64,000 bases of DNA from a virus. Where the stretch lies: positions 17,412 to 81,411 of the IMG/VR virus record IMGVR_UViG_3300025816_000009; one strand, given 5' to 3'. The translations under genes were made by a program, and so were the position numbers. Of this stretch, positions 2,298-45,944 are shown one piece after another. The notes below the pieces were generated by a model. It searched no databases, was not told where the DNA came from, and was given only the letters and a program-made list of their open reading frames with translations. Position 1 is the first letter of the stretch; each line of letters starts with the position of its first letter.

Positions 2298-2740
2298 TGC
2301 CGAGGAACTTTCGCAAACTCAACATCCGAAGGTATGTCGGAACTGTTCCCAATCTAACTTACGCATTTGCTAACTTCACAAATATGACTCCAAACGAATT
2401 GTTGAATAATTACAAGGATTATGCAAACGGTGATTCGATAGGCGGAACGGGAACGACACGAACTCCATTAGGAGCGACCGTACATATAGATTCAAGCGCA
2501 CCTAGATTATTGGGAGCATTCCCCGGCGGTGGGATGAATACGACAGGATATACAAATACGAGAATCGCCGCTGTCTCTCAAGTTCCACTACAGACACCCC
2601 AATTGACAGTCGCCGGAACGATTCTTGCGACACCGACGAATCTAACTTTTTCACCATGGGGCGGAACAGGAACTTTGGATAATGCAGTTAATGGAAAAGC
2701 CACGCGATTGCTAAGGCCAATGTTTGTAAAAGTGGTCTGA
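2297..2740 (+). CDS. Hypothetical virion-associated protein
   Basis: Gly/Thr-rich 147-aa ORF coupled to upstream gene in head module. Confidence 0.6.
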   Translation: MPRNFRKLNIRRYVGTVPNLTYAFANFTNMTPNELLNNYKDYANGDSIGGTGTTRTPLGATVHIDSSAPRLLGAFPGGGMNTTGYTNTRIAAVSQVPLQTPQLTVAGTILATPTNLTFSPWGGTGTLDNAVNGKATRLLRPMFVKVV

Positions 2741-2775
2741 CGTATTCATAGCGGTTGCCGCGTCAGTCGTTCGCT
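2735..2775 (-). ncRNA. Putative small hairpin RNA R1
   Basis: Starts 29 nt after cassette TATA (2804); CTGACG...CGTCAG stem enclosing GCGG-CAA-CCGC; no ORF. Confidence 0.35.
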
Positions 2776-2836
2776 GTACTGCCCTCACGCTTTCTAGTTA
2801 TAAACCTTTTCATTGATAGATTGTGAAATTGATATT

Positions 2837-2991
2837 GGGTTAGATTCCCCCCGTTCGTTATCACGAGTAGTTTCGGGGGGGATTCTTTTTCGATGTGTTT
2901 TAAGCATCAGAGTCCGGATTTGCACCGGCAGGTTCGCGACACCGGCCTGTCCTAAATTACCCGACCGAAGCCGGGCGCAGACGCCTCTCCC
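2837..2991 (-). ncRNA. Putative structured RNA R2
   Basis: Starts 30 nt after TATA (3021); CCCGGC-TTCG-GTCGGG hairpin, CCGG-TGCAAAT-CCGG T-loop-like hairpin, CCCCCCG...CGGGGGG stem. Confidence 0.6.
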
Positions 2992-3014
2992 AAACTGAAC
3001 GGGTCGCTTTCTAG

Positions 3015-3067
3015 TTATAAAACTTTCTATTGAGATATTGTAATATTGATAAATAGAAACCTTAATA
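3015..3067. promoter_or_regulatory. Bidirectional class-E promoter cassette (a one-sided copy also at 2798-2832)
   Basis: TTATAAAACTTTCT-ATTGA-N11-ATTGA-N6-GAAACC-TTAATA. Confidence 0.75.
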
Positions 3068-3090
3068 AGCAAAGCACTACAGGAACAAAC

Positions 3091-3255
3091 ATGATAACCC
3101 ATGAACATAATTGCGCCAATTGCTACAAAGCAACGACTAACGAGATGATAATTAATACCATTTCATTTACAATGTGTGAGGCTTGTGAAGAAAAAATAAA
3201 TGCGTCATTTGCGGCAAAAAGAGAAGAAGAAGAAGAATACGGTTCTATTAAGTAG
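3091..3255 (+). CDS. Small Zn-finger protein (leaderless; start 3091)
   Basis: CANC...CEAC; ATG 29 nt after cassette TATA. Confidence 0.65.
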   Translation: MITHEHNCANCYKATTNEMIINTISFTMCEACEEKINASFAAKREEEEEYGSIK

Positions 3256-3275
3256 GTGGGTCTTTACCGATTGGC

Positions 3276-3953
3276 ATGGCTAAATCAGTCAAAGAGTATC
3301 ACGTCAAACCATGTGATGTTTCGGTTATTAGGCCATTTATTGAAAAGTGGCATTATTCTAAATCAATAAACGGGGTTCGTTCCTCGTATTGTTTTGCTAT
3401 GTGGGAAGGAGACGAATCACATTCGAGAGTTCTAGTCGGCGCTATGCTTTACGGAATGCCGGGCATGGCGAACGCTTGGAAGCCTTATGGTGAAAAAGAA
3501 TCTGATGTTTTAGAATTACGCCGTCTCTGTTGCATTGACGATACGCCTCAAAATGCTGAATCATATTTTATTGGTAAGACTCTGAAATGGTTAAAAAATA
3601 ATACGCTTGTCAAAAATATAGTCTCATATTCTGATATGAATCACGGTCATGAAGGAACGATATACAAAGCGTCGAACTTTCGACATGATGGCATTACCTC
3701 TCCGGGACGAGTAATTATCAGATTGTCAGATGGGAAACAATATCACGACAAAACAATCCGAACAATGTACAATGGAAAATTAAAACCATTCGCTCAAAAA
3801 ATCAAGGAACAATTAGAAAACGGGGAAGCCGAATATAGAAATACAGTCGGGAAGAATATATTCGTATATGAACTCAAAAGAAAAAAACATCACAACGTCA
3901 TTCCGGTTTCTCCAAATGTTGAATCGTTAAGTTTCGAAGAATGGTTTAATTGA
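3276..3953 (+). CDS. Mom-like GNAT-fold DNA modification protein
   Basis: FIEKWHYS, LELRRLCC, ESYFIG, IVSYSD..GHEGTIYKASNF motifs typical of Mom-like proteins. Confidence 0.7.
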   Translation: MAKSVKEYHVKPCDVSVIRPFIEKWHYSKSINGVRSSYCFAMWEGDESHSRVLVGAMLYGMPGMANAWKPYGEKESDVLELRRLCCIDDTPQNAESYFIGKTLKWLKNNTLVKNIVSYSDMNHGHEGTIYKASNFRHDGITSPGRVIIRLSDGKQYHDKTIRTMYNGKLKPFAQKIKEQLENGEAEYRNTVGKNIFVYELKRKKHHNVIPVSPNVESLSFEEWFN

Positions 3954-3997
3954 TAATCAAATCAGTGATAAACCACGGACAGTCCCGTTAAGGTCGT

Positions 3998-5596
3998 ATG
4001 GAACTAAGCGGAGCAATCAATATCAAAGACCAAGACAAGTTCGATTCCCTCGACCTTCCTTCCCAAGATGTTCAGATTGAGTATAGAATAATCACACCTT
4101 TCGTCGTTAAGGCTTACGAAGATGACGAGAAGAAAAATGCAGATGTCATGATTAGAGGACCTGTATATGTGGGCGACAAGGATATGCTCGACAGGCATAA
4201 TGAACTTGTTGACTATGAAGCGATGATGGCGGCTTGGGATAAGTATTCCAAGAATCCGGTTATCTTATACAACCACTCTAAGACATACGGAGTTATTGGA
4301 AAAATGACTAATGTCTCCATGGATGAATGGGAAGATTATGGAACTGTTCCAATCGGAACTGCTATGATTGACAGTGGTGAAAAAGACATCACAAGAAAAA
4401 TACAGAAGGGAATGCTCAAGGCTTTCTCAATCGGATTCATAGCAAAAGCGGCAGTCAAGATTTGTGAAGACAAGGAAGATGACTGTTATATCAGATTCAC
4501 CGAGATTGATTGGGTCGAGACTTCGGTCGTCGATGTGCCGGCATCTCCGGGCGCATTATTTTCAGTTGAGAAAAAGTTCAGTTGGAAGAATGGAAAATCA
4601 CTTGGGGAGAAAGTGGGATGTGGATGTGGATGCAAAGGCGAGACTATTGAGTCCAATAGTTGCGAAGGAAAAGTTTCTGACAGCGCTGAAAACTTGTCCG
4701 AGAAAGAAATGGTCGGTGTTGATATTTACACAACAGAAGAGGAAGCATTAGCGAGAGCCGAAGAATTAGGTTGTTCCGGATTTCACACAATGGAAAATGA
4801 TGAGGGAGAAACCCTCTATATGCCGTGTAGTAGCCATGATGACTATGAATCTAGTACCGGAGATAGTGAGGAAGTGGAACTGTCAGCGAACGATTTGGTT
4901 AAGAACCCCGACTCACACCCATTGGATTCAACGGAGTCAACAGATATGTCAACAACCGAAGAGAAATCCATCAGCGAGGACGCTGAAACTATCGACGAGC
5001 CTATAGTAGAAGAGGCAGTTGTAGAGGAACAAACAGTAGAACTAACAGCAGATGAAACAATTATTGAAACTAAGGATGCAGAAGAAGCAGTCGAAGAGGA
5101 AGTAGTTGAAGAGGAAGTAGTTGACGAAGTAGTCGAGACTAAAGAAGCAGAGGCTACAGAAGAAGAATCAGCAACCCCATCCGGTGTTGAGGTTCTAATG
5201 GAAGTTGTTGGTGTTCTGAAAGAACTCAATGACAGGATGACCAAAATGGAATCCGCAGTTGACGCAACCGCTACATTAGAGAGCGAGATTGCAGAACTAA
5301 AATCAGTCGTCGAAGCAAGAGACGCAACAATCTCTGAATTAACAGAAGCAAAGAGTGTTGCAGAACAAGAAGCAGAGATTGAATCAGAAGTTTCAAAGAG
5401 AGTCGCAAAGACTCTATCAGAAGTAGGTGTTGAAGTAGAAGCACCTATCGCAAGCAGAAAGTCAGCAATAGTTGACACCGTAGTTGCTGACGTAAACAAA
5501 GCAAGTAGATTCGACCCACAGCCCAATGTAAGTCCCGGTATGAACGGCCTTGCTAAATGGCTAGAGGCTAACTTAGCGGGCAAGGGTAGAAACTGA
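3998..5596 (+). CDS. HK97-type prohead protease fused to acidic/coiled-coil scaffold
   Basis: NPVILYNH, KAFSIGF, ETSVVDVPASPGA; acidic coiled-coil C-terminus; precedes capsid gene. Confidence 0.88.
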   Translation: MELSGAINIKDQDKFDSLDLPSQDVQIEYRIITPFVVKAYEDDEKKNADVMIRGPVYVGDKDMLDRHNELVDYEAMMAAWDKYSKNPVILYNHSKTYGVIGKMTNVSMDEWEDYGTVPIGTAMIDSGEKDITRKIQKGMLKAFSIGFIAKAAVKICEDKEDDCYIRFTEIDWVETSVVDVPASPGALFSVEKKFSWKNGKSLGEKVGCGCGCKGETIESNSCEGKVSDSAENLSEKEMVGVDIYTTEEEALARAEELGCSGFHTMENDEGETLYMPCSSHDDYESSTGDSEEVELSANDLVKNPDSHPLDSTESTDMSTTEEKSISEDAETIDEPIVEEAVVEEQTVELTADETIIETKDAEEAVEEEVVEEEVVDEVVETKEAEATEEESATPSGVEVLMEVVGVLKELNDRMTKMESAVDATATLESEIAELKSVVEARDATISELTEAKSVAEQEAEIESEVSKRVAKTLSEVGVEVEAPIASRKSAIVDTVVADVNKASRFDPQPNVSPGMNGLAKWLEANLAGKGRN

Positions 5597-5604
5597 AAAT
5601 TAAA

Positions 5605-6681: not shown

Positions 6682-6766
6682 GTAGGATAATGTGGGGAGC
6701 AATCCCCCATTTCCTTCTCGGTCTTGTTTAGCATCGCTGATAAACCGTAAAGGGTGAGGTCAGTCT

Positions 6767-7450: not shown

Positions 7451-7460
7451 GGTCAATAGC

Positions 7461-7979: not shown

Positions 7980-8014
7980 ACACGGTTAAAAGCCCCCAAT
8001 AACCCCGGAACTAC

Positions 8015-8440: not shown

Positions 8441-8446
8441 TTAGGC

Positions 8447-8542
8447 ATGAATCCCGCATGGGAATTAATTTGCCTCTTCGAGTTTGTTGTTTGGATTGGA
8501 TTGATTACCGATTGGTTTCTCCAAGGTAATAGAAGATGGTAG
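8447..8542 (+). CDS. Putative 31-aa membrane peptide
   Basis: Manual translation MNPAWELICLFEFVVWIGLITDWFLQGNRRW. Confidence 0.4.
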   Translation: MNPAWELICLFEFVVWIGLITDWFLQGNRRW

Positions 8543-8546
8543 TTTT

Positions 8547-8723
8547 GGGAATGACCTTAGAAGGCTGAACGGATTAGGACATATTTCGAACTATGCACCG
8601 ACGTTGGAATAACTAACTCCACACCTTAGTCTCATTTCACTCTCTTTCAAGCACGTTATGAGATACCTTCACATTCCCGCCGCCCGTTGTGGTCGCGGGG
8701 CGACATAGGAACTAAGTTCCTAC
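8547..8723 (-). ncRNA. Putative structured RNA R3 (two 5' hairpins plus closed domain family)
   Basis: GTAGGAAC-TTA-GTTCCTAT; GTCGCCC...GGGCGGC; GGGAATG...CATTCCC closing stem. Confidence 0.6.
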
Positions 8724-8747
8724 AAACTAAGCGAAAGGCTCTCCCCT

Positions 8748-8800
8748 TATTAATGTTTCGGTGTATCAATGTCAGTGAACCTCAATGAAAAGGTTTATAA
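8748..8800. promoter_or_regulatory. Bidirectional class-E cassette driving R3 and R4
   Basis: TATTAATGTTTC-N6-TCAAT-N11-TCAAT-GAAAAGG-TTTATAA. Confidence 0.75.
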
Positions 8801-8823
8801 CTGAAAGCCTGCCTCATTAGTTT

Positions 8824-8934
8824 GTAGGAAGACGCGACACGACATCGACCCGGACGCGCCCTTTACTAGACGCTGTTGAAAAATACTCGCATGAAAGGGA
8901 CATGGATGGCGCTATTCACGCTCCGTCTTCCTAC
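8824..8934 (+). ncRNA. Putative structured RNA R4 (terminal-stem family)
   Basis: First 11 nt GTAGGAAGACG perfectly complementary to CGTCTTCCTAC at 8924-8934; starts 30 nt after TATA. Confidence 0.65.
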
Positions 8935-9536
8935 GACTTAATTCTATCAAAGACCATCAACGTGTTTTTGAACCACCAAAAACTTGAGTCTTTTCTAATT
9001 TGTAATGTATCGGCGAGATGCAAACTGAATCCTCGTCTCGCCATCTCCGCGATTATCACTTCATTCGGTTGTTCGTTTACGTGATAATATCCACCTTGTC
9101 CGGGAATTGCCCAAGATACAATTGCTCTGTTCAAACAAGTTTTACGGATGTTGTGAAGTAAATCTTGTTGCCTATTGGGTGGAATATGCTCGCCGACTTC
9201 TAGGCAGAGGATGTTCGCTCTGTCAAGTTCGACCAACTCTTCGGCCAAATCGACTTGGTGAATTGGATGAAATCTTGCGAGATGTTCTAGCGGCGTTCCT
9301 TCGAATCCTTCAACTTCGAAACCTTGCGTCGAAAGTGATACGCAATAATCTCCCGGTCCACAACCGAAGTCATAGATTGGTTCGTCCATTGGAAAATATT
9401 TCCACAAGTTTTTCATAAGGTCGGGGTCAGAACCATGCTGACCATCCGCTTCTTCGACATTCCAAATCCCGGTCGGTCCTACCATTGACTCACTTCTTCT
9501 TTTTGGAGCGATTTCCGAAAGCCTTTCTTTTACCAT
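8931..9536 (-). CDS. Class I SAM-dependent methyltransferase
   Basis: YDFGCGPG motif I; CLEVGEHI. Confidence 0.85.
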   Translation of the reverse strand: MVKERLSEIAPKRRSESMVGPTGIWNVEEADGQHGSDPDLMKNLWKYFPMDEPIYDFGCGPGDYCVSLSTQGFEVEGFEGTPLEHLARFHPIHQVDLAEELVELDRANILCLEVGEHIPPNRQQDLLHNIRKTCLNRAIVSWAIPGQGGYYHVNEQPNEVIIAEMARRGFSLHLADTLQIRKDSSFWWFKNTLMVFDRIKS

Positions 9537-9876: not shown

Positions 9877-9877
9877 A

Positions 9878-11230: not shown

Positions 11231-11777
11231 TGGAAGGGCCGGGCATATTTTGTTTGTCTTTCAATTCCGCCTTTCTTTTTTCTCGGACTCTTTGTCTTTT
11301 TTTCTTTTGAGACTTGCGTCGAGATTTGATTGCGTTTACTCGGAGCGGGTCATCAATGGTATCGAGGTCAATAGTCTGTTTTCCCCCAACGTGTTCCGGA
11401 CCCTTGCCGACAAGTTTCTGTTCGTAGTGATGAATCCGATGACAATTTGAACAGAGGATGTCGCACTTCGCCATCTCTTCTTCGATTCTTTTTCTTGAAT
11501 ATCCATTACTTACCAAGTGCGAAACGCCGGCAGTTTTAGTTCCGGCAACACGATGATGATATTCTAAAAGCCAAGGACAAGTTTCGCCGCTCAATCCACA
11601 TTCCGAACAATTTGATTCTCTTCTGATTTCATCATACCAACGTCGAATATTCTTACGACGCAACGCAACTTCTGTCTTGCGTTTCTTTGCGTTATTTGCA
11701 TAATAGACCTTCTGATAACGGCGATTGTACGCCCTTCGCTTATCAGCGTCCTTGTACGGCACGATTGATTCGAGCAA
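11217..11777 (-). CDS. HNH endonuclease-like protein
   Basis: CSECG...LEYHH...EEMAKCDILCSNCHRIHH. Confidence 0.8.
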   Translation of the reverse strand: MLESIVPYKDADKRRAYNRRYQKVYYANNAKKRKTEVALRRKNIRRWYDEIRRESNCSECGLSGETCPWLLEYHHRVAGTKTAGVSHLVSNGYSRKRIEEEMAKCDILCSNCHRIHHYEQKLVGKGPEHVGGKQTIDLDTIDDPLRVNAIKSRRKSQKKKRQRVREKRKAELKDKQNMPGPSIDES

Positions 11778-11796: not shown

Positions 11797-11899
11797 GGTT
11801 GTAGAAGCCGGGGGAACGATTGCGGGTATTACAGGAGAGGACTTTCGTCTTACACACACACCGTCTTCTGTCTTCTTACCCCGGATTTCTTCTACTTCC
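11797..11899 (-). ncRNA. Putative structured RNA R5
   Basis: 5' GTAGAAG-AAAT-CCGGGG pairs with 3' CCCCGG-CTTCTAC; GAC-GAAA-GTC hairpin; starts 30 nt after TATA (11929). Confidence 0.6.
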
Positions 11900-11923
11900 A
11901 ATCTAAGCGAGTGGACTTTCATT

Positions 11924-11975
11924 AATAAAGGTTTTCATTGAGAGGTTAAGACATTGAGATAAGGAAACCTTTATA
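11924..11975. promoter_or_regulatory. Bidirectional class-E cassette
   Basis: AATAAAGGTTTTC-ATTGA-N11-ATTGA-N6-GAAACC-TTTATA. Confidence 0.75.
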
Positions 11976-15681: not shown

Positions 15682-15682
15682 G

Positions 15683-20533: not shown

Positions 20534-20534
20534 G

Positions 20535-20725
20535 TGTAGGTGGGAGCGACCCATAGAACTCTCGACAGGTAATCAAGGCGGGTCATCGTCCCTTTTCCTC
20601 AACACCAAGCCGCACGACGACCGCATACACTGACGCCTTCGTGGTTCTCCTACTTTGTAAAAGTCCGCGGGGGGTTAGTCGCCGTAGGGTTCGTACCTTT
20701 CGCGGTGTCCGTCGCGTCCTCTTAC
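20535..20725 (-). ncRNA. Putative structured RNA R6
   Basis: Starts GTAAGAGGACGCGAC 30 nt after TATA (20755); 3' GTCGCTCC complementary; ORF-free. Confidence 0.55.
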
Positions 20726-20785
20726 AAACTAATGACAGAGCCTTTTGGTTATAAACCTTTTCATTGAGAGTTTAGTAATATTGAG

Positions 20786-20993
20786 GTAAGAGAAGCGGGC
20801 AATTACAAACCTTCTTGGAATCTCTTCCTTTTCTCGGTTTCCTCATCCTGTCCCGTCTTCTCTTAGGTTGTAAGATTTCGCGTTGCTGTTGGTCCTAGCC
20901 TTTTAGTGATATTTTCCATCATTCTATTCAAGTTTTTACACTCTGTTTCTTTCACTACCCTAACTTTCACGAATCCGCGCCGCGTCCTCTTAC
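20786..20993 (-). ncRNA. Putative RNA R7 (purine-rich, terminal stem)
   Basis: Starts GTAAGAGGACGCGG, ends CCGCTTCTCTTAC; first 13 nt identical to R6. Confidence 0.55.
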
Positions 20994-21016
20994 AAACTAA
21001 ACGAGTCGTCTTTTGG

Positions 21017-21069
21017 TTATAAACCTTTTTATTGAGAGTTCTTTACATTGATAGTTCGAAACACTTATA
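21017..21069. promoter_or_regulatory. Bidirectional class-E cassette (one-sided copy also at 20749-20784)
   Basis: TTATAAACCTTTTT-ATTGA-N11-ATTGA-N6-GAAACA-CTTATA. Confidence 0.75.
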
Positions 21070-21092
21070 AGGGGGAATGCCTAGGACAGAAC

Positions 21093-28828: not shown

Positions 28829-29164
28829 TCAGTAAGTGTCTCTAGTCCATTCCATTCCACTTTGGAAGATAACTCTTAATGTTCCATAACGACCTTCTGC
28901 TCTAAATCTTGTCATGAACATATCGAATGCAACAGTCTGCATTTGCCTAGATGTTGTTTGGTCTAACAAATCAGAAGGTTGAGGACCTGCTCTGAATCCA
29001 CCAACAAGCGAAAGGTATTGTCCTTGAAGGTCAAGAGATACCCCTTGTTCAGTCGTTGCGACCCATTCTTCGTCAGCCATTCCATCTCTTACAAGTGCGG
29101 ATAAGTATGCCTGCGCTTCTGCGGTTGTTGCTCTGTATTGCGGTTGTCCGTAATCTCTGCTCAT
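28829..29164 (-). CDS. Hypothetical protein (start 29164)
   Basis: ATG 29 nt after cassette TATA (cassette 29188-29226). Confidence 0.6.
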   Translation of the reverse strand: MSRDYGQPQYRATTAEAQAYLSALVRDGMADEEWVATTEQGVSLDLQGQYLSLVGGFRAGPQPSDLLDQTTSRQMQTVAFDMFMTRFRAEGRYGTLRVIFQSGMEWTRDTY

Positions 29165-29250
29165 ATACTGTCGTGTACTGCTTTGCCTATAAAGGTTTCG
29201 TTCTATCAATGTTAACACATATCAATGAAAAGATTAGAATAATTTTGTAA

Positions 29251-29502
29251 GGGCAACAGTATGCCTCTGTTCAGATTCGCCGGTTTGGCGGCCGCATATT
29301 CCACACAATCCCGGTAAGGATTTCGTTCCCAACCACGAGAACTCAAATGTTTTATAGATAGGCTACTGACCACCATTCTCTCACGTTAGTTCATTTTATA
29401 ATCAAGTCTAACACCAAGCAATTCCTTTCGGACCTCTTAGAGTGCGTTCCCCCTATCCTGTTGCCCGGGCGTCAAAGCGCCCAAGAGAAGCCACCTTCCC
29501 TC
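29251..29502 (-). ncRNA. Putative structured RNA R8 (two 5' hairpins plus closed domain family)
   Basis: GAGGGAAG-GTGG-CTTCTCTT; GGGCG-N6-CGCCC; GGGCAACAG...CTGTTGCCC; many internal hairpins. Confidence 0.65.
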
Positions 29503-29525
29503 AAACCTAACGAACAGCCTTTGGC

Positions 29526-29580
29526 TTATAAAGGTTTCGTTTTATCAATGTTAATAGTTATCAATAGAAAGATTTATTAA
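29526..29580. promoter_or_regulatory. Bidirectional class-E cassette driving R8 and R9
   Basis: TTATAAAGGTTTC-N6-TCAAT-N11-TCAAT-AGAAAGA-TTTATTAA. Confidence 0.75.
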
Positions 29581-29601
29581 TGGAATGTCCTAGGACAGTA
29601 C

Positions 29602-29825
29602 AGAGTGAACGGCGCTTATCCGAGCAAAGTTCGCAAACCCGGTGGCTACGACCGATTCGAACTTGATTCGTCTTAGCCTAGGAAGTTGGGGGATATGAGA
29701 GAACATATTCTCCGTTAGAAGATTGACTGTATTGCTTGGAAGCAGAACACTTTGGGGCGAACTTGGTCTGTTCTATCTTCTATCATATAGGAGCAGGGAT
29801 GCTTCTAAGCCACCGGGAAATCGCA
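29602..29825 (+). ncRNA. Putative structured RNA R9
   Basis: 10-bp stem CCCGGTGGCT (29638) / AGCCACCGGG (29808); ORF-free. Confidence 0.55.
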
Positions 29826-29873
29826 TAATTCAAAAACCAATCAATTCATAAAGGTGCGGCAAGGGTCAAGAAC

Positions 29874-30640: not shown

Positions 30641-32434
30641 GTGGATAGGAAGTTAGAGCGCTATCATCGGATAGTCCGTGAGTCTCCAAAAGAAACAATT
30701 GACCCACCTGCCGGCTTGTCAGAAGCAATAGAACAAATGTCGAAAGACAAGAGAAGGCCACGAACTGCGATAGCAAGATGGGTCAGCAAACAGTGGGCGG
30801 AATTGCATTACGAAAGAATACAAGGTCAACCCTTGCCCGAGGCTTCTGCGGCTATTGGGATGGTTCAGAAGGAAACAATCGAGAGGCCAACTCACTTCCC
30901 AACTCATTTCGGACTTGGGTTAGTCCCGTCAACATTATCAATTGGCGGTTGGCGACAGGATAAGACATACACTTCATGTTATACATCTTTGAGCGTTCCT
31001 AGGCCATTCGACCCGACACTCCATGGAACTATCGCCGGAACTGTTGGGTTCAGTTATATGGGCTACCAAGGAAATCCCGACCCGGCTCAATATGACATAA
31101 CCACTAGAAGAGGCGGTGGTCCTCGTGGTGGTTTCAGTTGGACGACAGGACCAACAGAAGGAAATTATCCTACTAGCGTTCTTCCTCAACCGACTTTCAA
31201 TCTCGGCGTATTGGGATTCAGTAATGGCGGATGGAATCCCGAAGGTCTTCAATGGACGAATAGACCCAAGCAAGTTCGACTTCAAGGTCTTAGAAATAAT
31301 TCGGTTCATCGTGTGATGTTCGCCCGTTCTCGAAAAGTAATGTTCAGAAACTTGTACGGTCCAATATCAGAAGACGAAGCGACACCAAAAGCGCCGAATG
31401 TTTTGATTAACGGAACAAAGCCAATTTCCGGAATCAAAAACTTGCGAATAAAACGCCGATATAATGCACCTGCCGAGGCGACTATTGACCTCAATAGTGT
31501 GGCGGGAAGACGGTCCGGTATTGTGAAACTTGGCGACACGGTGCAAGTTTTTGCATCTCCCCGGGAGTGGGATAATCCACCACTAATTTTTACAGGATTC
31601 GTTTCAGACATTGAAGAAGATTCTACCACGGTTTCAATAATCTGCCTAGATGCTCTAGGGTATTTGACGAAAGAAGTTCTTTTGACTAATCCAACATACC
31701 AAGAAACCGACGCGGGTGTGGTTTGTAGAGATATTATCGCAGGTTCTTCATACGGTCCGCCGCTAGGAAAAATCTCAACACAAACCCGAGTTATACTTCC
31801 CTCAAGTTTGGATTTGTCTAAGAAAAGTCGTCTCGATGCAATCCAAACAATACTCGATATTGTCAACAACACACCCAACCAAGTCATACTTCAAGCAGAG
31901 GTTAACGGGTACATTAATCTTGTGAGATTGAGGGAAGTTGATGATACAAGTTTGAAACCTTACATCGCCGGGAGACTGCCAAAAACTTCTGTCCCACAGG
32001 ATTTGTACCCGACTCAAATAACTAGAGATGAGGGAGATTTAGACTTCGTAAATAAAGTGTCAATCACAAACTCTGAAATCGGTTTGATAGCAACCGAACC
32101 TACAACACCTGTTCAAAATCCTGTTCATATTATTGTCGAAGAAACTGCGGCGACTGACGTTCCGACAGCCAAGTTCTTTGCTCAACAAATATTGAATCAA
32201 CAAGGTCGAGCAGGTTCTCGTTGGAATGTTCAAGCGCTACCGGAGAGGTTTGATATTATGCCGGGTCAAGTAGTTGACTTCGCTTCCACTGATGGCGGTC
32301 TAGCAGGCAGGCAAAGAGTATTCGATGTATCAATAAAATACAGCCCGAGCGACGTATCAATGACGATGACTGTTGGTCGTCAAGCCCCCGATTTGGTTGC
32401 CATGTTGAGATATGCAACAGGCGTTTCGCAATAA
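30641..32434 (+). CDS. Baseplate hub/tail-tip protein
   Basis: IFTGFVSDIEE...ICLDAL, PGQVVDF...RVFDVSIKY pattern. Confidence 0.6.
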   Translation: MDRKLERYHRIVRESPKETIDPPAGLSEAIEQMSKDKRRPRTAIARWVSKQWAELHYERIQGQPLPEASAAIGMVQKETIERPTHFPTHFGLGLVPSTLSIGGWRQDKTYTSCYTSLSVPRPFDPTLHGTIAGTVGFSYMGYQGNPDPAQYDITTRRGGGPRGGFSWTTGPTEGNYPTSVLPQPTFNLGVLGFSNGGWNPEGLQWTNRPKQVRLQGLRNNSVHRVMFARSRKVMFRNLYGPISEDEATPKAPNVLINGTKPISGIKNLRIKRRYNAPAEATIDLNSVAGRRSGIVKLGDTVQVFASPREWDNPPLIFTGFVSDIEEDSTTVSIICLDALGYLTKEVLLTNPTYQETDAGVVCRDIIAGSSYGPPLGKISTQTRVILPSSLDLSKKSRLDAIQTILDIVNNTPNQVILQAEVNGYINLVRLREVDDTSLKPYIAGRLPKTSVPQDLYPTQITRDEGDLDFVNKVSITNSEIGLIATEPTTPVQNPVHIIVEETAATDVPTAKFFAQQILNQQGRAGSRWNVQALPERFDIMPGQVVDFASTDGGLAGRQRVFDVSIKYSPSDVSMTMTVGRQAPDLVAMLRYATGVSQ

Positions 32435-32456
32435 TCGGAGTTTTTATCCCCATCAT

Positions 32457-32485
32457 TAGATTCCCCCCCTTTAGGGGGGAATCTA
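32457..32485. repeat. 12-bp perfect inverted repeat at module boundary
   Basis: TAGATTCCCCCC-CTTTA-GGGGGGAATCTA. Confidence 0.7.
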
Positions 32486-32726
32486 GTCTAAAGAATCGAA
32501 CTGACTAACCCCCTAAGAGACACATAGTATAGTTGAACTGTATATACATCAGAGTATGAGTATGTTCGTTTAATTAATTAAGGTGGGATTAGCAGGGAAT
32601 GATATGGGCGCGGACACTCTTTTCCTTGAAAGCCCTGTTGTTGGGGCGTCGCGCCCATGGGGTTTTGTGTTATTTCTCCCCATTAATATGCGCCCCGATG
32701 ATAGGCAACAAGCGACGGTGAAATGA

Positions 32727-32936
32727 ATGGACTTTTTAGAATTAGAAACTACGACAGGATTAACGATGATTCGAATTGATGACATTTCAGCAATCACACA
32801 CATGGAATATTGTTGGGAGATTCATCTTCAATCGGGAACTATATTCAGAACAAACGACGAGAACAATCGTCTCCGTGAATGGATGCACCGAAGTCAAGGC
32901 GGAACAATGTCTTACAACGGCATTCCGAAGAAATGA
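32727..32936 (+). CDS. Small hypothetical protein
   Basis: IRIDDISAI...EIHLQSG small beta-domain pattern. Confidence 0.55.
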   Translation: MDFLELETTTGLTMIRIDDISAITHMEYCWEIHLQSGTIFRTNDENNRLREWMHRSQGGTMSYNGIPKK

Positions 32937-32942
32937 GGAATC

Positions 32943-33064
32943 TGCGGTCAAGAGCCAACACCCGCCCCCCGTCGGGGGTGGAGCAAGCCAACTCTGATTT
33001 ACGGGTTTACCCTACAGGTGGAAGGCCGGCCGGTGAAGTCGCCTATTCCGGCTGACTCTATCGC
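32943..33064 (-). ncRNA. Putative structured RNA R10
   Basis: 5' AGAGTCAGC pairs with 3' GTTGGCTCT using G-U (strand-specific); CCCCC-GAC-GGGGG hairpin. Confidence 0.6.
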
Positions 33065-33122
33065 ATTTGACCCTGTAGCCGTTTAGTTATAAACCTTTTC
33101 ATTGATAACTCAAGACATTGAT

Positions 33123-33205
33123 GAGGCGGGGGAGCAACCCCCCATTTAGAATCAAGCCCGCAACCATGCGTGGGAATCGAACCTCTCGTAGCCCTCTTCT
33201 TCCTC
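33123..33205 (-). ncRNA. Putative small RNA R11 with T-loop-like motif
   Basis: GAGG...CCTC ends; GGTTCGATTCC; CGCA-TGGT-TGCG; GGGGG-N6-CCCCC. Confidence 0.5.
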
Positions 33206-33228
33206 AATCTAAGCGAACAGCCTTTGAG

Positions 33229-33281
33229 TTATAAATCTTTTTATTGATAACTCAAGACATTGATAGAACAAAACCTTTATA
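33229..33281. promoter_or_regulatory. Bidirectional class-E cassette (duplicate one-sided copy 33087-33121)
   Basis: ATTGATAACTCAAGACATTGAT identical in both copies. Confidence 0.75.
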
Positions 33282-33304
33282 TGCTGGAAGCCGTAGGACA
33301 GAAC

Positions 33305-35303: not shown

Positions 35304-35587
35304 AAGAATTACCCGAGTTCGTTCTTGCTCCGAAGCACAAGTTTGAAATGAATGGCGAGACTATTGACATCCCCTCAAGAAAAGTTCGAGTTTACGGTTA
35401 TGCAAATTGGCCGTCATGTCCGAATTGTAAAAGAGAAGGACCTATGGATGGCTTTCTTCTCAAGCCCGAGGAATGGCCGAACGCTGTAATCATTTGCGGT
35501 GAACATCCGGGTTGCGGAATATTTTGGTGTCAGATTGGAGTTCCGCCCCAAGACCATACTTGGACGTATATCGAAAGTAATGGTTGA
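35300..35587 (+). CDS. Zn-ribbon protein
   Basis: CPNC...C...C; GTG overlapping helicase stop. Confidence 0.55.
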   Translation: MKELPEFVLAPKHKFEMNGETIDIPSRKVRVYGYANWPSCPNCKREGPMDGFLLKPEEWPNAVIICGEHPGCGIFWCQIGVPPQDHTWTYIESNG

Positions 35588-35588
35588 C

Positions 35589-35824
35589 GGGCATGAAGTT
35601 TCAAACGGCACAAGAAACTGCTTTTTATGAGTCCGCCTCTCTCTTCCTTGTGTTGTTCCATTATTCCAATCATGCCCTGTGAGTAAGATAGAAAGGCCGC
35701 TCCCAAATCGTCCGTTCGTTCGGGAACGCCTTTCGGCGAGAGAAGATTTCTGTCCTTCCAAGACCCCTGCGGTGGCGGTTCTGCCTCGTGCTTGAAGGGC
35801 GGTGTCGGAGTGGCTTTCTTCTCT
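35589..35824 (-). ncRNA. Putative two-domain structured RNA R12
   Basis: AGAAAGCCACTCC...GGAGCGGCCTTTCT; CGCC-GAAA-GGCG; second domain GGGCATGA...TCATGCCC. Confidence 0.6.
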
Positions 35825-35847
35825 GTACTGTCGTAGGCACTTCCGGC

Positions 35848-35900
35848 TATAAAGGTTTCGGTTTATCAATGTCTCATTCTATCAATAAAAAGACTTATAA
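35848..35900. promoter_or_regulatory. Bidirectional class-E cassette driving R12 and R13
   Basis: TATAAAGGTTTC-N6-TCAAT-N11-TCAAT-AAAAAGA-CTTATAA. Confidence 0.75.
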
Positions 35901-35922
35901 ACAGACACCTATAGGGTCAAAC

Positions 35923-36123
35923 AGCGAAAGTGGGTACGCCACCCACACAACAGAGGTTGTAAAATATTCATGTTGGGCAGTTCGCCGTCAGAAGACTGAC
36001 GTTAAACAACGAGGAAGTACACGGCAGACCCCGGGCGAGGGGAAGTGGCAGAGGGTAGGGGCTGTCGCAACACGGATTACACGGATTCGTGATAGTAGGT
36101 AGGGGCTATCACACACGACTTTC
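35923..36123 (+). ncRNA. Putative structured RNA R13
   Basis: GAAAGT...ACTTTC ends; hairpins GTGGG/CCCAC, ACAAC/GTTGT, CGTCAG/CTGACG, GTGATAG/CTATCAC. Confidence 0.55.
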
Positions 36124-38126: not shown

Positions 38127-38168
38127 ACACACCCTGTCCTTTATATTGGTGGGGAATGAGGGTACGAT

Positions 38169-39356: not shown

Positions 39357-39394
39357 TTGGAGTCGCTTAAATAGGTGGTAAATGAGGGATTGAT

Positions 39395-40285: not shown

Positions 40286-40345
40286 ACATCTCCGTTAGCG
40301 AGTTCTTCAAATAGGTGGCTAACAGCGAAAGGAATGTGAACAAAC

Positions 40346-41867: not shown

Positions 41868-42180
41868 TATTGACGTCAATACCTTGACTACCAAGACTTC
41901 CTATAGGCTCTGTATTTTTACTCCTTATAGAACGACGCCGTTTTGAAGCCAAAATAAATGTGCGCTTGCGGCTCAAAAACGCACTTTTTTTCTAGTGCAA
42001 AAAGTGTGCAAAAGTTCGATTAAAAAGAAACTATTTCCGGGCTATTGGTGTCAATATTCTGACACTACTTAACCTGTGCAAAATATCGCAAGTTTTTTTC
42101 TCAATATTATCCCCAATATACCCACATATTGACGTCAATATATTCGAAAATGTAAAGGAAGTAGGGAAAACGATGTCTTT
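41868..42180. other. AT-rich non-coding region with palindromes; candidate replication origin
   Basis: TATTGACGTCAATA (41868-41881), ATATTGACGTCAATAT (42126-42141), GTGCAAAA x3, A/T tracts. Confidence 0.45.
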
Positions 42181-42229
42181 TCATTGATAAAACCAAAACA
42201 TTGATAAGGGGGAAGACATAGGACGAAAC

Positions 42230-42337
42230 ATGGAGATAAGTCCTAGTTTGATAGGACCAATCGTGGTATTGTTGCCACCTTTGGGAATGATAGTAGTCGG
42301 GTTGTTAATGACCGGAATGTTGACCGTTCGTCGGTAA
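42230..42337 (+). CDS. 35-aa hydrophobic peptide
   Basis: MEISPSLIGPIVVLLPPLGMIVVGLLMTGMLTVRR, after a class-E-like promoter. Confidence 0.5.
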   Translation: MEISPSLIGPIVVLLPPLGMIVVGLLMTGMLTVRR

Positions 42338-42381
42338 ATATACACCATTCATTTCATAAAGGTGTGGAACGACGAAGAACT

Positions 42382-43182
42382 ATGACCTTAACGCCGAATA
42401 GCAACGTGAGCAGAACGGGAATCGTTCGTGCCGAATCATCATCTCTGTCAACCGCACTTCGTCGAGCAGTTCTCGACAATCCTTCAAATCCTGTGAAAGC
42501 ATTATTCACCGAAGAAGGATTGAGTATTTGGACTCACGATATTGCTAAGACAGTTCAACTGATAATGACCAATGCAACAATTGGCGGCTTGAAGGTAAAG
42601 AATCCTGTCATCATGTTGCTCGACCCGGAATCAATGGCTTCACTTTTAGATACTAAGTTCCCCGGTGAAATGGTCAAACTTGAATGCAAACCAAACTCTC
42701 CAATTACCGTTTCATCTCGAAGCGGTGGAAATGTTGTTTATCATCCGGCTGATGAAGATGATTGTTTCGTCGTTCCCGACCATTGGATTATGCCGAAAGA
42801 TTCTGACGGTTGGTTTACAATTCCAATGAAGAATGGAGAAAAATGTACAACAAGAGTCGTACTTTCGAAACAAGAAATGCAAAACGGAATAGTTGACATG
42901 ACTGTCGCCGGCGCTCCTTACGTTTCATTCGACTTCAATCAGAATGGTTCGACCTGCGAATCCGGACATTGGGGTTCAAAGACCAATCGTTCTATGACGC
43001 CGATTAATGCAACAGTCGAAGGACCTGCAATATCACTAAACTTCACCGAGAATCTTGGTGGAATCCTCGGTCGGCTTGACGGTGAGAATTACGTTGTTCA
43101 GAAACATTCAGCGACTCCGTTCACAATTATTGAAAGTGGTTCGACTGTTGTCGTTGCTACAGAAGCGCAACGTGAGGGATGA
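42382..43182 (+). CDS. pcna: Sliding clamp (PCNA-like)
   Basis: About 266 aa; LFTEEGLSIWTHDIAKTV resembles PCNA N-terminus; RFC and PolB nearby. Confidence 0.65.
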   Translation: MTLTPNSNVSRTGIVRAESSSLSTALRRAVLDNPSNPVKALFTEEGLSIWTHDIAKTVQLIMTNATIGGLKVKNPVIMLLDPESMASLLDTKFPGEMVKLECKPNSPITVSSRSGGNVVYHPADEDDCFVVPDHWIMPKDSDGWFTIPMKNGEKCTTRVVLSKQEMQNGIVDMTVAGAPYVSFDFNQNGSTCESGHWGSKTNRSMTPINATVEGPAISLNFTENLGGILGRLDGENYVVQKHSATPFTIIESGSTVVVATEAQREG

Positions 43183-43427
43183 TAATGTACGACCCGAATC
43201 ATGGATTATATCAACGAGTGAAAGCAGAATCAGCGCTTGGTATTGACGAGGAAACTCGCGACCAAATTATGACTGCCGTCAAACTTGACTTACTTCTTGC
43301 TCATGCGGGAATCACTGACGATAAAATCGAATTGGCTTATGACGCCGCATTGAAAAATCAATTGGCTGATGTCAGAGATGCTTTCGAAGCCCTCGTCGGG
43401 AAGGACGAGGATTTGGATGAGATTTGA
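43179..43427 (+). CDS. Hypothetical acidic protein
   Basis: Coupled ORF. Confidence 0.55.
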   Translation: MIMYDPNHGLYQRVKAESALGIDEETRDQIMTAVKLDLLLAHAGITDDKIELAYDAALKNQLADVRDAFEALVGKDEDLDEI

Positions 43428-44592
43428 TAATGAGAAAATGGAATTACTTCTCGAACATCTCGGGTTCAGACATTTCCCAAGGGCGATAGGAAATCCAAGA
43501 CAAGAGTTCGTTTACTCAACCGATGAAGTTTATCCGAAACTTGTTCAGTGGGATGGTAATTCATCTTGCTTCATTTCAACCGGCGGTTATGACGCGCTCA
43601 AGTGGGAAGTTGGAAATAAACAAAGTCCGGGTAAAATAATTCACGAGATGACTTTCTTTGACTTCGACCACGAGACGAAACCGGAAAACGCATTTGCTGA
43701 CGCTCAAAGATTATCTCAATTCTTGACGAAGATGAACATCGCACATTGGGTTCAGTATTCCGGAAGCAAGGGTTATCATTTATTCATAATTCACAAACCT
43801 ACGAAGTTCAAGTTCGACCATCGCGACGGTTCAGCGGATGCGTTGAAGAATCTTCTAAACCAAACTCAAACTCATCTCGGAAAAACACTTGGACTGAATA
43901 CTTTGGATGAACAAACTACCGGCGACCCAAAACGCTTGTGTAGGATTCCATTCACTCGTCATGTAAATCGCTTGGGTAAATTATCCGGCAGATATGCTGT
44001 TCCTGTTGACACGGAAAAACTTGACACAATTTCACACGAGGATATTGAAAAAATGTCCTATCGACCTCGATACGCTTTGCCTAACATCATCGGGAGAAGA
44101 CTAACTTTGCGAGATTTCATTGTCGAACTTGGTGTTGAACTTCACCAACCCGAAACTCAACTTCGTGATATTATCAATTCCGATTTCGATTACAATCCAT
44201 CAACGACGGCATTTCTAAAATCGCTTGAATACAGATGTCCGGGTGTCGTCAATGAATTGAAGCGTAGGAATCCCCCACACAACGCAAGGGTGTTTAGTGC
44301 GCTGTTCGGAAAAACATTAGGCTATGATGGGGGGAGATTCGAAGATATTTGGATGGAAATGGGGAAGACAATTGGTTATGTGGACTTACACAATAAAGAG
44401 CATAGACTCTATCAAATGTCAACAATATTCGATGACCCGAAATGGCGGTCATTCCCGAACTGTACAACACTCAAAGCCAAGGGCTGTTGCATTGGTGAAA
44501 CCTGTCCGAGATGGAAGACTTTTCAAGGTGGGGCAACTAACCAAGTTCGTACAATAAACAGGAAGTGGAGAAAGAAAAATGGTAGCAAATAA
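43417..44592 (+). CDS. Archaeo-eukaryotic primase, PriS-PriL(Fe-S) fusion
   Basis: FFDFD, YSGSKGYH, RLCRIP; C-terminal CP...PPHNAR...PNCTTLKAKGCCIGETC. Confidence 0.85.
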   Translation: MRFDNEKMELLLEHLGFRHFPRAIGNPRQEFVYSTDEVYPKLVQWDGNSSCFISTGGYDALKWEVGNKQSPGKIIHEMTFFDFDHETKPENAFADAQRLSQFLTKMNIAHWVQYSGSKGYHLFIIHKPTKFKFDHRDGSADALKNLLNQTQTHLGKTLGLNTLDEQTTGDPKRLCRIPFTRHVNRLGKLSGRYAVPVDTEKLDTISHEDIEKMSYRPRYALPNIIGRRLTLRDFIVELGVELHQPETQLRDIINSDFDYNPSTTAFLKSLEYRCPGVVNELKRRNPPHNARVFSALFGKTLGYDGGRFEDIWMEMGKTIGYVDLHNKEHRLYQMSTIFDDPKWRSFPNCTTLKAKGCCIGETCPRWKTFQGGATNQVRTINRKWRKKNGSK

Positions 44593-45460
44593 GACAGCGA
44601 AATATGACAAGATAATCGAAAACGAAGAATCGCTTGCGGCGTTCTTTGACGGCGAACCGAACCTTGGTCAACTTTTGGGATTGTACAGATACTCGAAAAA
44701 CTTGATTGAAGAAATGGCACTTTCGGGAACGAGACAGGATATGCCGGACCAAGATGAGTTCCTATTGACTTCAATAGACCCATGGAAGTTAGAGAAAAAA
44801 CTTGGGGAAATGATTCTGAACGAAATGGTTAGCCGACATCGAAAAGTTGACCATCGAGAACATTGGACGATGTGCGCGTATCTCGGAGATTTAGGATTCG
44901 AAGTTGTTCATCTCAATACAGGAGAAGGAGATGTATCAAGTCGAAAAGTCAGTATCGAGAGAAAAGAGGACGACCTCGTTCCGTCTCTGTTCGATGGCAG
45001 AAGACTAAGACAACTAAGCGCCATGAGAGAAACTGCTGAATATTCATTTTTGATAGTTTCGAAATCATATACGGAAATCAAAAAGGGATTACAAGAGCGA
45101 CAAGTTTCAGATAAAATCTTCACGTCGTTCATAGCAAGTTTGGCCGCTGTTGGCTATCCGCCGATGTTTATTGATGACAGATACGACGCCGCTCAAGTGA
45201 TGCACCAATTAATCGGGAAGATTGAAGATGACAATCATCGACTCTATGTTCCCCGACCCAAAGGCGCTAACCCAACTGATTTCCGAAATGCTATGGTCGA
45301 GGCTTTGCCGAAGGTTGGATTCAAAACACGCCGAAAATTAGTAGCCAAGTTTCCGAGCATAGCAAAATTAGTAGCCGCGAGTGTTGATGATATACAAGCG
45401 ATTGAAGGAATTGGTCAGAAGACTGCCGAAAAGATTTGGCATTGTCTTCATGATGAATAA
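44579..45460 (+). CDS. ERCC4/XPF-family nuclease with HhH domain
   Basis: VDHRE, GD, IERKEEDDL..S..DGR...QL; IEGIGQKTAEKI. Confidence 0.85.
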   Translation: MVANKTAKYDKIIENEESLAAFFDGEPNLGQLLGLYRYSKNLIEEMALSGTRQDMPDQDEFLLTSIDPWKLEKKLGEMILNEMVSRHRKVDHREHWTMCAYLGDLGFEVVHLNTGEGDVSSRKVSIERKEDDLVPSLFDGRRLRQLSAMRETAEYSFLIVSKSYTEIKKGLQERQVSDKIFTSFIASLAAVGYPPMFIDDRYDAAQVMHQLIGKIEDDNHRLYVPRPKGANPTDFRNAMVEALPKVGFKTRRKLVAKFPSIAKLVAASVDDIQAIEGIGQKTAEKIWHCLHDE

Positions 45461-45464
45461 CACC

Positions 45465-45944
45465 GGGGCTTTCAACTCTTCCTACTCAATGAGGCATCCT
45501 TCTTCCCTAGTGTTTTTATGAGAACAGTGCCTAAGTTTCGAGTCGGATGTTCTCAAGTTTTTCTTGTTTGGGTATGCTGTATGACCACTTATTGCCTCGG
45601 CTTCTTTATCCGCTAGTGGTTCAAAGGGTTGGGAATGGGATAGCCCGTCTGCTTAGGTGCGTGAGAATTACCTCGTTGCCCCCTATCCATCGCTACTTTC
45701 TTGCCTAATTTATCGTGGTCTGTTCATTACTATTCCATAGTGTTGTTTCCCTTCAAGGGGTTCTACCCAAGAAGTCTCTCTTCCGCTTCAATCACTCGCT
45801 GTTTTTCGCTTTAGCCGCATATGCCTATGTCTTTGTGATTTCGAAGAGAGGACAAGTCCTCGCCGCCGAGCCTTCCTCGGAAGCATCTTCGCTCATTCCC
45901 GGGAGTCCGCCTTTCGACGTCTCCCATGAGAGGCAACCTCTCAC
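45465..45944 (-). ncRNA. Putative large structured RNA R14 (about 480 nt)
   Basis: GTGAGAGG-TTG-CCTCTCAT; GGGAG..GAAA..CTCCC; GGGAATG...CATTCCC; further stems; cassette at 45969-46007. Confidence 0.65.

Follow-up and report, generated by a model that had tools for sequence, protein, structure and literature searches.

This study examined a window of 64,000 nucleotides (nt), bases 17412-81411 of the 81,411-base IMG/VR record IMGVR_UViG_3300025816_000009, which is treated here as a marine archaeal tailed virus; coordinates are window positions unless marked G000. The window carries 12 copies of a bidirectional promoter cassette, whose outward promoters are predicted to read into leaderless protein genes and into 14 segments free of open reading frames (ORFs), labelled S1 to S14. 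These segments are probably independently promoted, stable, trans-acting structured RNAs of ~45 to 480 nt, which probably bind proteins. The evidence that carries this reading is base-pair covariation in S8, in two modules of S12 (S12a and S12b) and in S13, together with the shared promoter geometry and the way in which modules and promoters move together among related viruses.

The cassette is 45-65 bp long and sited between operons. It consists of a TATA box, a pair of direct ATTGA(T/G) repeats at 16-bp spacing and a second TATA box, placed back-to-back so that the two TATA/BRE (TFB recognition element) boxes face outwards. Read from left to right, a leftward start ~23 nt outside the first box is followed by TTATAAACCTTTTC, ATTGAK (K, T or G), 10 nt, ATTGAK, 5 nt, GAAACC-TTTATA and a rightward start ~23 nt outside the second box. 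The initial annotation had proposed one shared cassette, and the 12 window copies bear this out: the 20-mer TCAATGAAAAGGTTTATAAC gave 7 matches at ≤3 mismatches versus a mean of 0.02 in 100 shuffles, and 0/100 shuffles reached 7. The repeat families D5, D8 and D10 are copies of the cassette. Of the 14 ATTGAK-N10-ATTGAK pairs counted over the genome (81.4 kb), 11 lie within cassettes and 3 cluster at 50543-50637; the twelfth cassette (copy 5, also delimited as 20748-20786) has N11 spacing instead of N10. Protein genes are driven from either cassette side, and in three copies (3, 8 and 11) both sides lead into ORF-free segments. Upstream of the window lies a half-cassette (G000:12880-12942) with two CTCAATG repeats and TTTATAAC; this half-copy (G000:12898) drives a leaderless ATG straight after the preceding gene. 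The ATTGA(T/G) repeats are a putative binding site of one regulator. The ATTGAK pair is held by all three closer records and by relatives down to 73% helicase identity; it was found in none of five more distant records (G004 to G008), where the promoters differ. Separately, ATTGAT/ATTGAG repeats at 16-bp spacing without a divergent TATA pair lie at 50527-50675, upstream of a MoxR-like AAA+ gene at 50680, and a similar element lies at 53014-53092.

The ORF-free segments had been predicted to begin with a purine at the offset from the TATA box at which leaderless genes place their ATG, and both halves of this prediction hold. All 14 RNA starts have A or G at +1, and script output placed the beginning of a TATA-type A/T run at -28 to -31 for 11 of them; for S7, S11 and S13 the script picked a longer A-run further upstream, and TTTATAA, TTTATAA and CTTATAAA, respectively, are visible in the sequence at ~-30. 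For the leaderless genes at 3091, 11999, 21093, 29164, 33305 and 46045 the run begins at -28 to -30 in 6/6. Two classes of RNA start were recognized: GGACAG(U/A)ACAG..., which is like gene starts minus the ATG (S1, S9, S10, S12 and S13), and UUAGUUUG-GUARGAGG (S2-S8, S11 and S14). The longest ORF on either strand did not exceed that of mononucleotide shuffles except in S5 (40 amino acids versus 28.9), S12 (58 versus 53.2) and S14 (76 versus 73.9). Indels of 1, 2, 4, 5, 7 and 26 nt in homologues are out of frame. The S10 region past ~128 nt is not ORF-free and holds a 69-amino-acid ORF at 32727-32936. GC content is 50.3% in the segments versus 44.9% in coding DNA (standard deviation 3.5% per 200 nt), and 12 of the 14 segments have more A than T on the predicted strand.

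Homologous stretches (L0xx) and other records (G001 to G008) were collected by four protein-anchored scans, by cassette and core patterns and from three whole records; homologues were few. Covariation strongly supports S8 as a true folded RNA. In an alignment of three sequences, 97.7% of cells in 74 pairs were paired, and double changes were found in 7 pairs, versus 2.4 in shuffles (1/500 reached 7) and 0 in all six slid controls; the alifold energy was -76.1 on the predicted strand versus -56.5 on the reverse. Strong support of the same kind was obtained for S12b, where three sequences gave double changes in 8/25 pairs versus 2.9 in shuffles (0/500 reached 8) and alifold energies of -17.9 on the predicted strand versus -11.5 on the reverse. 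By eye, the conserved part of S13 (36018-36115) shows two hairpins, whose G-rich loops are AGGGUAGGGG and UAGGUAGGGG, with ACACGG before each hairpin. Its core is represented by six distinct sequences, which form six distinct 7-bp stems around the invariant loop GAGGGUAGGGGC. Over 11 pairs, 92.4% of cells were paired versus 76.7% in shuffles (0/500 reached this value), double changes occurred in 9 cells versus 3.5 in shuffles, and the alifold energy was -16.7 on the predicted strand versus -5.6 on the reverse; this strongly supports a true folded RNA here as well.

Compensatory substitutions show that the S12a module, too, is a real folded RNA. In L014, L015 and L016, identity over its 51-nt core is 90-98%, where the genes of these relatives have DNA identities of 65-75%. 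As closing stem, the window has AGAGAAGA/UCUUCUCU, L014 and L015 have GAGCCCACCGA/UCGGUGGGCUC and L016 has GAACCAGCCCGA/UCGGGCUGGUUC; thus, in three lineages, the sequence is wholly different and complementarity is kept. Double changes affect 4 of its 17 pairs, and in S12 as a whole 7 changed pairs are kept and 3 broken in pairwise comparison. A search of 82 sources (901,530 bases) with the S12a covariance model R1 returned the 7 known copies (5 distinct) and two weak matches (E 0.14 and 0.35), and no more distant members. A further motif, G[AG]TAGGGG, was defined after viewing the data; its 4/4 genome occurrences lie in S8, S13 (twice) and S14, all on the predicted strand. GUAGGGG resembles the 3'-terminal helix of 16S rRNA over 7 nt, which we take to be likely chance. 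The S13 G-loop hairpin is also seen, with a wholly different stem, in L110/G004, an 89,618-base record of IMG/VR class provirus, where the start resembles GACGCGACGG.

The placement of the modules indicates how they may act. Inspected by eye in the window and its relatives, S12a, S12b and the S13 core occur 14 times in total, and each time a same-strand TATA-type promoter stands ≤200 nt upstream. In G001, S12a stands after the giant tail gene and not after the helicase, and the S13 core is inverted along with its promoter. Since the modules relocate or invert with their promoter and always lie downstream of it on the same strand, their placement fits trans-acting promoter-plus-RNA units better than elements serving a neighbouring gene. 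Transcript data came from unstranded Logan contigs of three RNA runs, which hold 7-9% of the sampled words. A contig from run X4 skips exactly 35579-35683, which is S12b, and, within S13, the variable part (35929-36017). The positions of all cassettes and segments are given in Table 1.

Table 1. Cassette copies and ORF-free segments, in window positions; RNA descriptions are predictions from sequence.
Feature	Position	Strand	Description
Cassette copy 1	2788..2833	+	D5; leftward TATA only (to S1) and two ATTGAT repeats, without rightward TATA
Cassette copy 2	3005..3068	+	Leftward TATA to S2; rightward TATA to leaderless ATG 3091
Cassette copy 3	8742..8801	-	D8; both sides to ORF-free S3 and S4
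Cassette copy 4	11913..11975	+	Leftward to S5; rightward to leaderless ATG 11999
Cassette copy 5	20739..20786	+	ATTGAG repeats, N11 spacing; to S6
Cassette copy 6	21007..21070	+	Leftward to S7; rightward to leaderless ATG 21093
Cassette copy 7	29182..29235	-	D8; to leaderless minus-strand gene from 29164; weak TATA on other side
Cassette copy 8	29521..29583	-	Both sides to ORF-free S8 and S9
Cassette copy 9	33077..33122	+	Leftward TATA only (to S10)
Cassette copy 10	33219..33282	+	Leftward to S11; rightward to leaderless ATG 33305
Cassette copy 11	35842..35902	-	Both sides to ORF-free S12 and S13
Cassette copy 12	45963..46025	-	One side to S14; other to leaderless ATG 46045 (RFC-like AAA+ protein)
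S1	2728..2775	-	Hairpin RNA of ~45 nt, then UUUU; overlaps stop codon of convergent gene 2297-2740
S2	2834..2991	-	ORF-free, 158 nt, GC 55.7%
S3	8441..8723	-	283 nt; 5' hairpin GUAGGAAC/GUUCCUAU
S4	8824..8936	+	RNA of ~113 nt; 11-13-bp helix joins 5' and 3' ends
S5	11797..11899	-	RNA of ~103 nt; interrupted terminal stem GGAAGUAGAAG/CUUCUACAACC
S6	20534..20725	-	First 72-77 nt closed by 10-bp terminal stem UUUGUAAGAG/CUUUUACAAA; remainder variable
S7	20790..20993	-	A-rich, 204 nt; terminal stem of 8-9 bp
S8	29240..29502	-	Multibranch RNA of ~260 nt: 5' hairpin, second hairpin, 9-bp long-range helix GGGCAACAG/CUGUUGCCC; includes GAUAGGGGG
S9	29602..29850	+	~250 nt; then promoter of gene 29874
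S10	32937..33064	-	128 nt, GC 61.7%; runs into 3' end of ORF 32727-32936
S11	33125..33205	-	81 nt, between two cassettes
S12a	35739..35824	-	RNA module of ~86 nt; conserved 51-nt core within variable closing stem
S12b	35588..35683	-	Hairpin-type RNA module of ~95 nt; invariant interior GAGAGAGGCGGACUCAUAAAAAGCAG
S13	35923..36115	+	Variable 5' part 35923-36017; conserved part 36018-36115
S14	45461..45944	-	ORF-free, 484 nt; 5' hairpin, 10-bp long-range stem to ~+430; includes GAUAGGGGG

For the remaining segments, changed base pairs were scored as kept or broken in homologues on folds of the window sequence alone. Summed over all tests of this kind, S12 included, 61 changed pairs were kept and 56 broken on the predicted strand, versus 43 kept and 80 broken on the opposite strand. 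The pairwise changes lend weaker support to S1, S2, S4, S5, S9, S11 and S14. Support is moderate for S4 (z-score of the minimum free energy (MFE), z = -2.90), in whose terminal stem an A-U pair is replaced by U-A in L085 and whose interior has a 26-nt indel. It is likewise moderate for S9 (z = -2.53; MFE -83.5 versus -64.3 on the opposite strand), where comparison with L073 at 95% identity gave 7 changed pairs kept, 2 of them double changes, and 1 broken. Moderate to weak support was obtained for S14 (z = -0.98), whose sole homologue, L096 at 95.7% identity, gave 6 pairs kept (3 double changes) and 3 broken. Three segments are weakly supported as structured RNAs. S1 (z = -0.95) matches L081 without change over bases 1-43 and L088 over bases 1-41, and in L074 AGCG/CGCU becomes AGAG/CUCU, one compensatory pair outside the MFE fold (by eye). 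S2 (z = -0.85) has one informative homologue, L004 at 91.8% identity, with one double-change pair kept, one pair broken and, by eye, one hairpin swapped for a different one; its opposite strand folds better. S11 (z = +0.71) is 88% identical in L089, with 4 changed pairs kept (1 double change) and 2 broken.

For S5 (z = -2.41), 1 changed pair was kept and 0 broken on the predicted strand and 1 kept and 3 broken on the opposite strand; by eye, homologues carry C-to-U changes at two places of the 3' arm, and these leave G-U pairs. A TATA-like box, CTAAATAAC, lies downstream of S5, 22 nt ahead of a GTG at 11762, and S5 could alternatively be a 5' leader. As RNAs, S3, S6, S7 and S10 are unsupported. 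Homologues of S3 (z = -1.62) are 81-98% identical with 54-nt and 5-nt indels, and its two parts (S3a and S3b) together gave 3 changed pairs kept versus 3 broken. In S10 (z = -0.65), bases 96-135 are 97.5% identical in L082 and bases 1-95 are without homologue.

Two further stretches were noted near S10. At 32604-32690 (plus strand) lies a further putative structured RNA outside the cassette, whose start coincides with the ATG position of a TTAATTAAGGTGGG promoter; in L089, two compensatory pairs turn the stem GGGCGCG/CGCGCCC into GGCGGCG/CGCCGCC. The most widely conserved non-coding stretch of the set, 32446-32545, lies directly after gene 30641-32434 and holds ...UUAGGGGGUUAGUCAGUUCGAUUC... 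and the palindromic hairpin AGAUUCCCCCC-UUUA-GGGGGGAAUCU. Identity to this stretch is 76-80% for L014, L015 and L016 and 74.6-92.8% for L012 and L013, in which the match extends through the rest of S10.

Folding of single sequences gave only moderate evidence for the segments, and the initial annotation was partly corrected here. It had assigned closing stems or hairpins with UUCG/GAAA loops to most segments, which was overstated: only 6/14 contain a stem of at least 4 bp capped by a GNRA or UNCG tetraloop, and the frequency of such hairpins is 2.1 per kb versus 0.92 per kb of coding DNA. Terminal helices joining the 5' and 3' ends reach 10-13 bp in S4, S6 and S14, and those of 7-9 bp elsewhere are within chance. 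The comparison with shuffles gave z ≤ -2 in 5/14 segments (S13 = -1.99) versus 1/30 coding controls. The promoter-predicted strand, on which the initial annotation had seen the G-U pairs work, is favoured by the alifold energies of S8, S12b and S13, whereas single sequences have their lower MFE on that strand in only 9/14. The proposal of about 14 structured RNAs is upheld by covariation in S8, S12a, S12b and S13 and has no support in S3, S6, S7 and S10.

Several observations weigh against the reading of the segments as structured RNAs. The covariation sets are small, with 3 to 6 sequences, and the strand of S12a is not settled by alifold energy (-14.9 predicted versus -18.3). Nine segments have z above -2, and the mean z is -1.65. 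S6 (z = -0.85), in which 1 base differs from L040 over the first 77 nt and the remainder has 7-nt and 4-nt indels, fails the pairwise test with 3 changed pairs kept versus 6 broken, and is unsupported by covariation. S7 also fails against L081 (0 kept, 5 broken); its z of -2.83 and the 13-bp 5'-3' helix retained, by eye, in the L081 copy make the evidence mixed. The syntenic sites in G001 to G003 (65-75% gene identity) hold mostly unalignable ORF-free sequence, and one of them carries a leaderless protein gene instead, so many segments are under weak or fast-changing constraint. The RNA contigs, being unstranded and of depth 0-3, lie over genes and spacers alike; bin 29071-29737 is uncovered in all three runs. 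A 277-nt contig of run X2 (20630-20906), identical to the window, spans cassette copy 5 from S7 into S6; it stems either from transcription that began at the S7 promoter and read through or from carried-over DNA. The predicted strand has 1 run of at least 4 T and 18 runs of at least 4 A, but this depletion of T runs is not significant allowing for composition (p = 0.13). Finally, plus-strand runs of at least 5 T lie within several spacers after the upstream operon (2886, 20933, 35622 and 45513); thus, part of each spacer may act in cis as a terminator of that operon.

Taken as separate short structured-RNA genes, often made of tandem modules, the segments could work as follows. One regulator would bind the ATTGA(T/G) repeats of the cassette. 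One cassette side would usually start a leaderless mRNA, and from the opposite side, or in three copies from both, an RNA would start at the predicted position and run into an ORF-free, GC-enriched segment. The purine-rich 5' end of this RNA would be locked in a helix, either a local hairpin or a pairing with the 3' end, and such end-to-end pairing may stabilise the RNA. The RNAs would act in trans, their modules moving and inverting with the promoter independently of neighbouring genes, and most likely by binding proteins through invariant loops such as the twin G-rich loops of S13 or the G(A/G)UAGGGG of S8, S13 and S14; such binding might serve host takeover, counter-defence or virus assembly. 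The coordinate expression and the decoy, sponge, guide or scaffold roles suggested by the initial annotation are conjectural. A more specific proposal, which we put forward tentatively, is that the segments form a co-regulated kit of a dozen or more stable small RNAs for multi-target takeover of the host or counter-defence. The regulator at the repeats would then switch on leaderless operon mRNAs and, divergently, the RNAs. Through their invariant loops, for which the twin GGGUAGGGG loops of S13 and the G(A/G)UAGGGG motif shared with S8 and S14 are candidates, the RNAs would titrate RNA-binding or sensor proteins of the host, and viruses would exchange the RNA genes in the form of promoter-plus-RNA units. 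If this is true, the kit would give archaeal viruses an RNA-based analogue of anti-defence gene islands.

The spacers might also be cis-acting operon punctuation, that is, terminators or insulators, 3'-end stabilisers or 5' leaders, with transcription from the outward promoter being a by-product or serving only to block read-through. The T runs directly after operon ends fit this view, as does the orientation of the segments, 10/14 of which aim at the 3' end of the preceding gene. Palindromic hairpins of the G6/C6 type adjoin three cassettes (2846-2885, 32458-32486 and 33125-33145), S1 places a hairpin and UUUU across a stop codon, and S5 may be a leader. We nevertheless judge cis-acting punctuation unlikely as the general explanation: the cores are 90-98% conserved versus ~70% for the neighbouring genes, the same module stands next to different genes or is inverted with its promoter in relatives, and termination has no need of invariant 10-12-nt loops. 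Moreover, the strand tests of S8, S12b and S13 favour the promoter strand and not that of the upstream operon.

Another alternative is that the cassette is a DNA-level recombination or shuffling module of the promoter early stem-loop (PeSL) kind, in which case the cargo would be mostly debris of lost genes or filler, with few functional pieces. The unalignable syntenic cargo, the protein gene found at one site and the X4 contig, in which presence and absence follow module boundaries, are what such shuffling would leave, and the class one RNA starts (GGACAGUACAG...) look like gene starts (GGACAGAACATG) minus the ATG. Shuffling and structured RNAs are not mutually exclusive. As an account of the cargo, however, debris is improbable, given that GC is enriched and not depleted and that compensatory evolution and conserved cores are seen. 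The terminal stems vary and the interiors are conserved, which is the opposite of the pattern of a miniature inverted-repeat transposable element (MITE), and a MITE-type element was ruled out on this ground. It is highly improbable that the segments encode short leaderless peptides below the length cut-off of the ORF list: by eye, a GTG at +5 in S9 opens 22 codons, and the 32604 element begins with an ATG opening 40 codons, but the latter frame is broken by a frameshift in L092 at 92.8% nucleotide identity, 12/14 starts are without a start codon at +1 to +5 (by eye), the longest ORFs are not above shuffles, and with the out-of-frame indels no conserved short ORF survives as an explanation.

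Searches were performed for known RNA families and other identities. Rfam 15 gave 0 matches over the window at the gathering score, and with permissive filters (window and six sub-regions) the best scores were 10-24 bits versus gathering scores of 35-90, with E ≥ 0.58. The manA RNA (RF01745) was ruled out for the segments because it had no row in any Rfam search. ARAGORN found 0 tRNA or transfer-messenger RNA genes in the 64 kb; by eye, S11 has a T-loop-like word, GGTTCGATTCC, without a T stem. The RTGATGA word of C/D box small RNAs occurred 0 times on either strand of the 14 segments, and, with a CRISPR mini-array in view, no regularly spaced repeat family was found besides the cassette and collagen-like coding repeats. 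A 19-mer scan of 596 Gb for a host copy of the S12a core gave 5 matches, in unrelated bacterial metagenome-assembled genomes, where ~4 were expected by chance; a host copy was therefore rejected. Complements of the S12b, S13 and S12a loops, searched over the whole genome at ≤1 mismatch, gave no convincing antisense target: the scan yielded only the loops' own loci, short chance words and one S13-loop-like word within S8.

Among the proteins encoded in the window are a portal, an S78 prohead protease, a tape-measure protein, a DNA polymerase of family B, a Rad3/DinG-type helicase and an RFC-like clamp-loader subunit, as well as a PrimPol-like protein, a nuclease of the PD-(D/E)XK type and a MoxR/VWA pair. 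The best annotated relatives of the polymerase are from haloarchaeal tailed viruses (22-25% identity), and gene starts are leaderless ATGs ~23 nt downstream of a TATA box. Because of this gene content, these polymerase relatives and these TATA-spaced starts, the virus most likely has an archaeal host and was treated as a marine archaeal tailed virus resembling magroviruses. A candidate replication origin is the AT-rich ORF-free spacer at 41868-42195, which differs from the RNA segments and adjoins the replication genes; it holds the palindrome TATTGACGTCAATA twice, ~260 bp apart, as well as GTGCAAAA repeats and a number of T runs. From 60242 to 64000 runs a long, GC-rich open frame of 9-nt (Gly-X-Y, collagen-like) repeats, which continues past the window end.

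In one genome, a dozen promoter-defined RNA candidates thus stand behind one recognisable bidirectional unit, which is unusual for a tailed virus, and none of the four modules with covariation support matches Rfam. To our knowledge, one or two non-coding RNA genes, not counting tRNAs, are usually the most that is ascribed to a tailed virus of bacteria or archaea. Stable structured RNAs other than tRNAs are known from tailed viruses in the packaging RNA of phi29 and, for phage T4, in small RNAs of its tRNA region; unlike them, the RNAs predicted here have no match in Rfam, which would cover the phi29 RNA, and no tRNA shape, and their genes are far more numerous and dispersed. The putative new RNA families each offer an invariant loop or core usable for partner capture, and the G(A/G)UAGGGG motif is a usable handle despite its post hoc definition. 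The cassette provides a probable operator for a viral regulator, and the system as a whole gives a view of the exchange of promoter-plus-RNA units among abundant ocean archaeal viruses whose hosts are unculturable.

Known RNAs of the EBER, VA and HSUR type act by binding host proteins or RNAs. They are small abundant RNAs of eukaryotic DNA viruses, as outlined in parts of a review (PMC4378190). With these RNAs, so far as that outline goes, the present case shares several short structured RNAs with dedicated promoters in a double-stranded DNA virus, here predicted from sequence; it differs in its archaeal host and TATA/BRE promoters, and there is no kinship in sequence or structure. Closer in genome layout are the haloarchaeal virus HGTV-1, in which a TATA-plus-inverted-repeat motif is described as preceding many ORFs (part of PMC3950731), and the PeSL promoter/stem-loop cassettes of T4-type phages (parts of PMC2839356 and PMC4122927). 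To the extent that these sources describe them, they share with the present virus a promoter-bearing motif dispersed at transcription-unit borders (here in 12 copies) and cargo that differs among close relatives, as in the relocated or reoriented S12a and S13. Unlike these motifs as described, the cassette here faces both ways, its two TATA boxes flanking a pair of direct ATTGA(T/G) repeats, and its cargo is predicted to be largely non-coding structured RNA and not small ORFs; unlike the stem-loop of the PeSL descriptions, a promoter-attached stem-loop does not appear to be constant, and G6/C6-type hairpins adjoin only 3/12 cassettes. The initial annotation knew of no described equivalent in archaeal tailed viruses. 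The words 'noncoding', 'non-coding', 'intergenic' and 'promoter' do not occur in the searched main text of the magrovirus papers PMC5434244 and PMC11706807, which agrees with that statement, whereas the dispersed motif of HGTV-1, as far as the source describes it, qualifies it. Dispersed promoter motifs as such are already known; what appears to be new here is the gathering of many short, unrelated, putative RNA families under one cassette.

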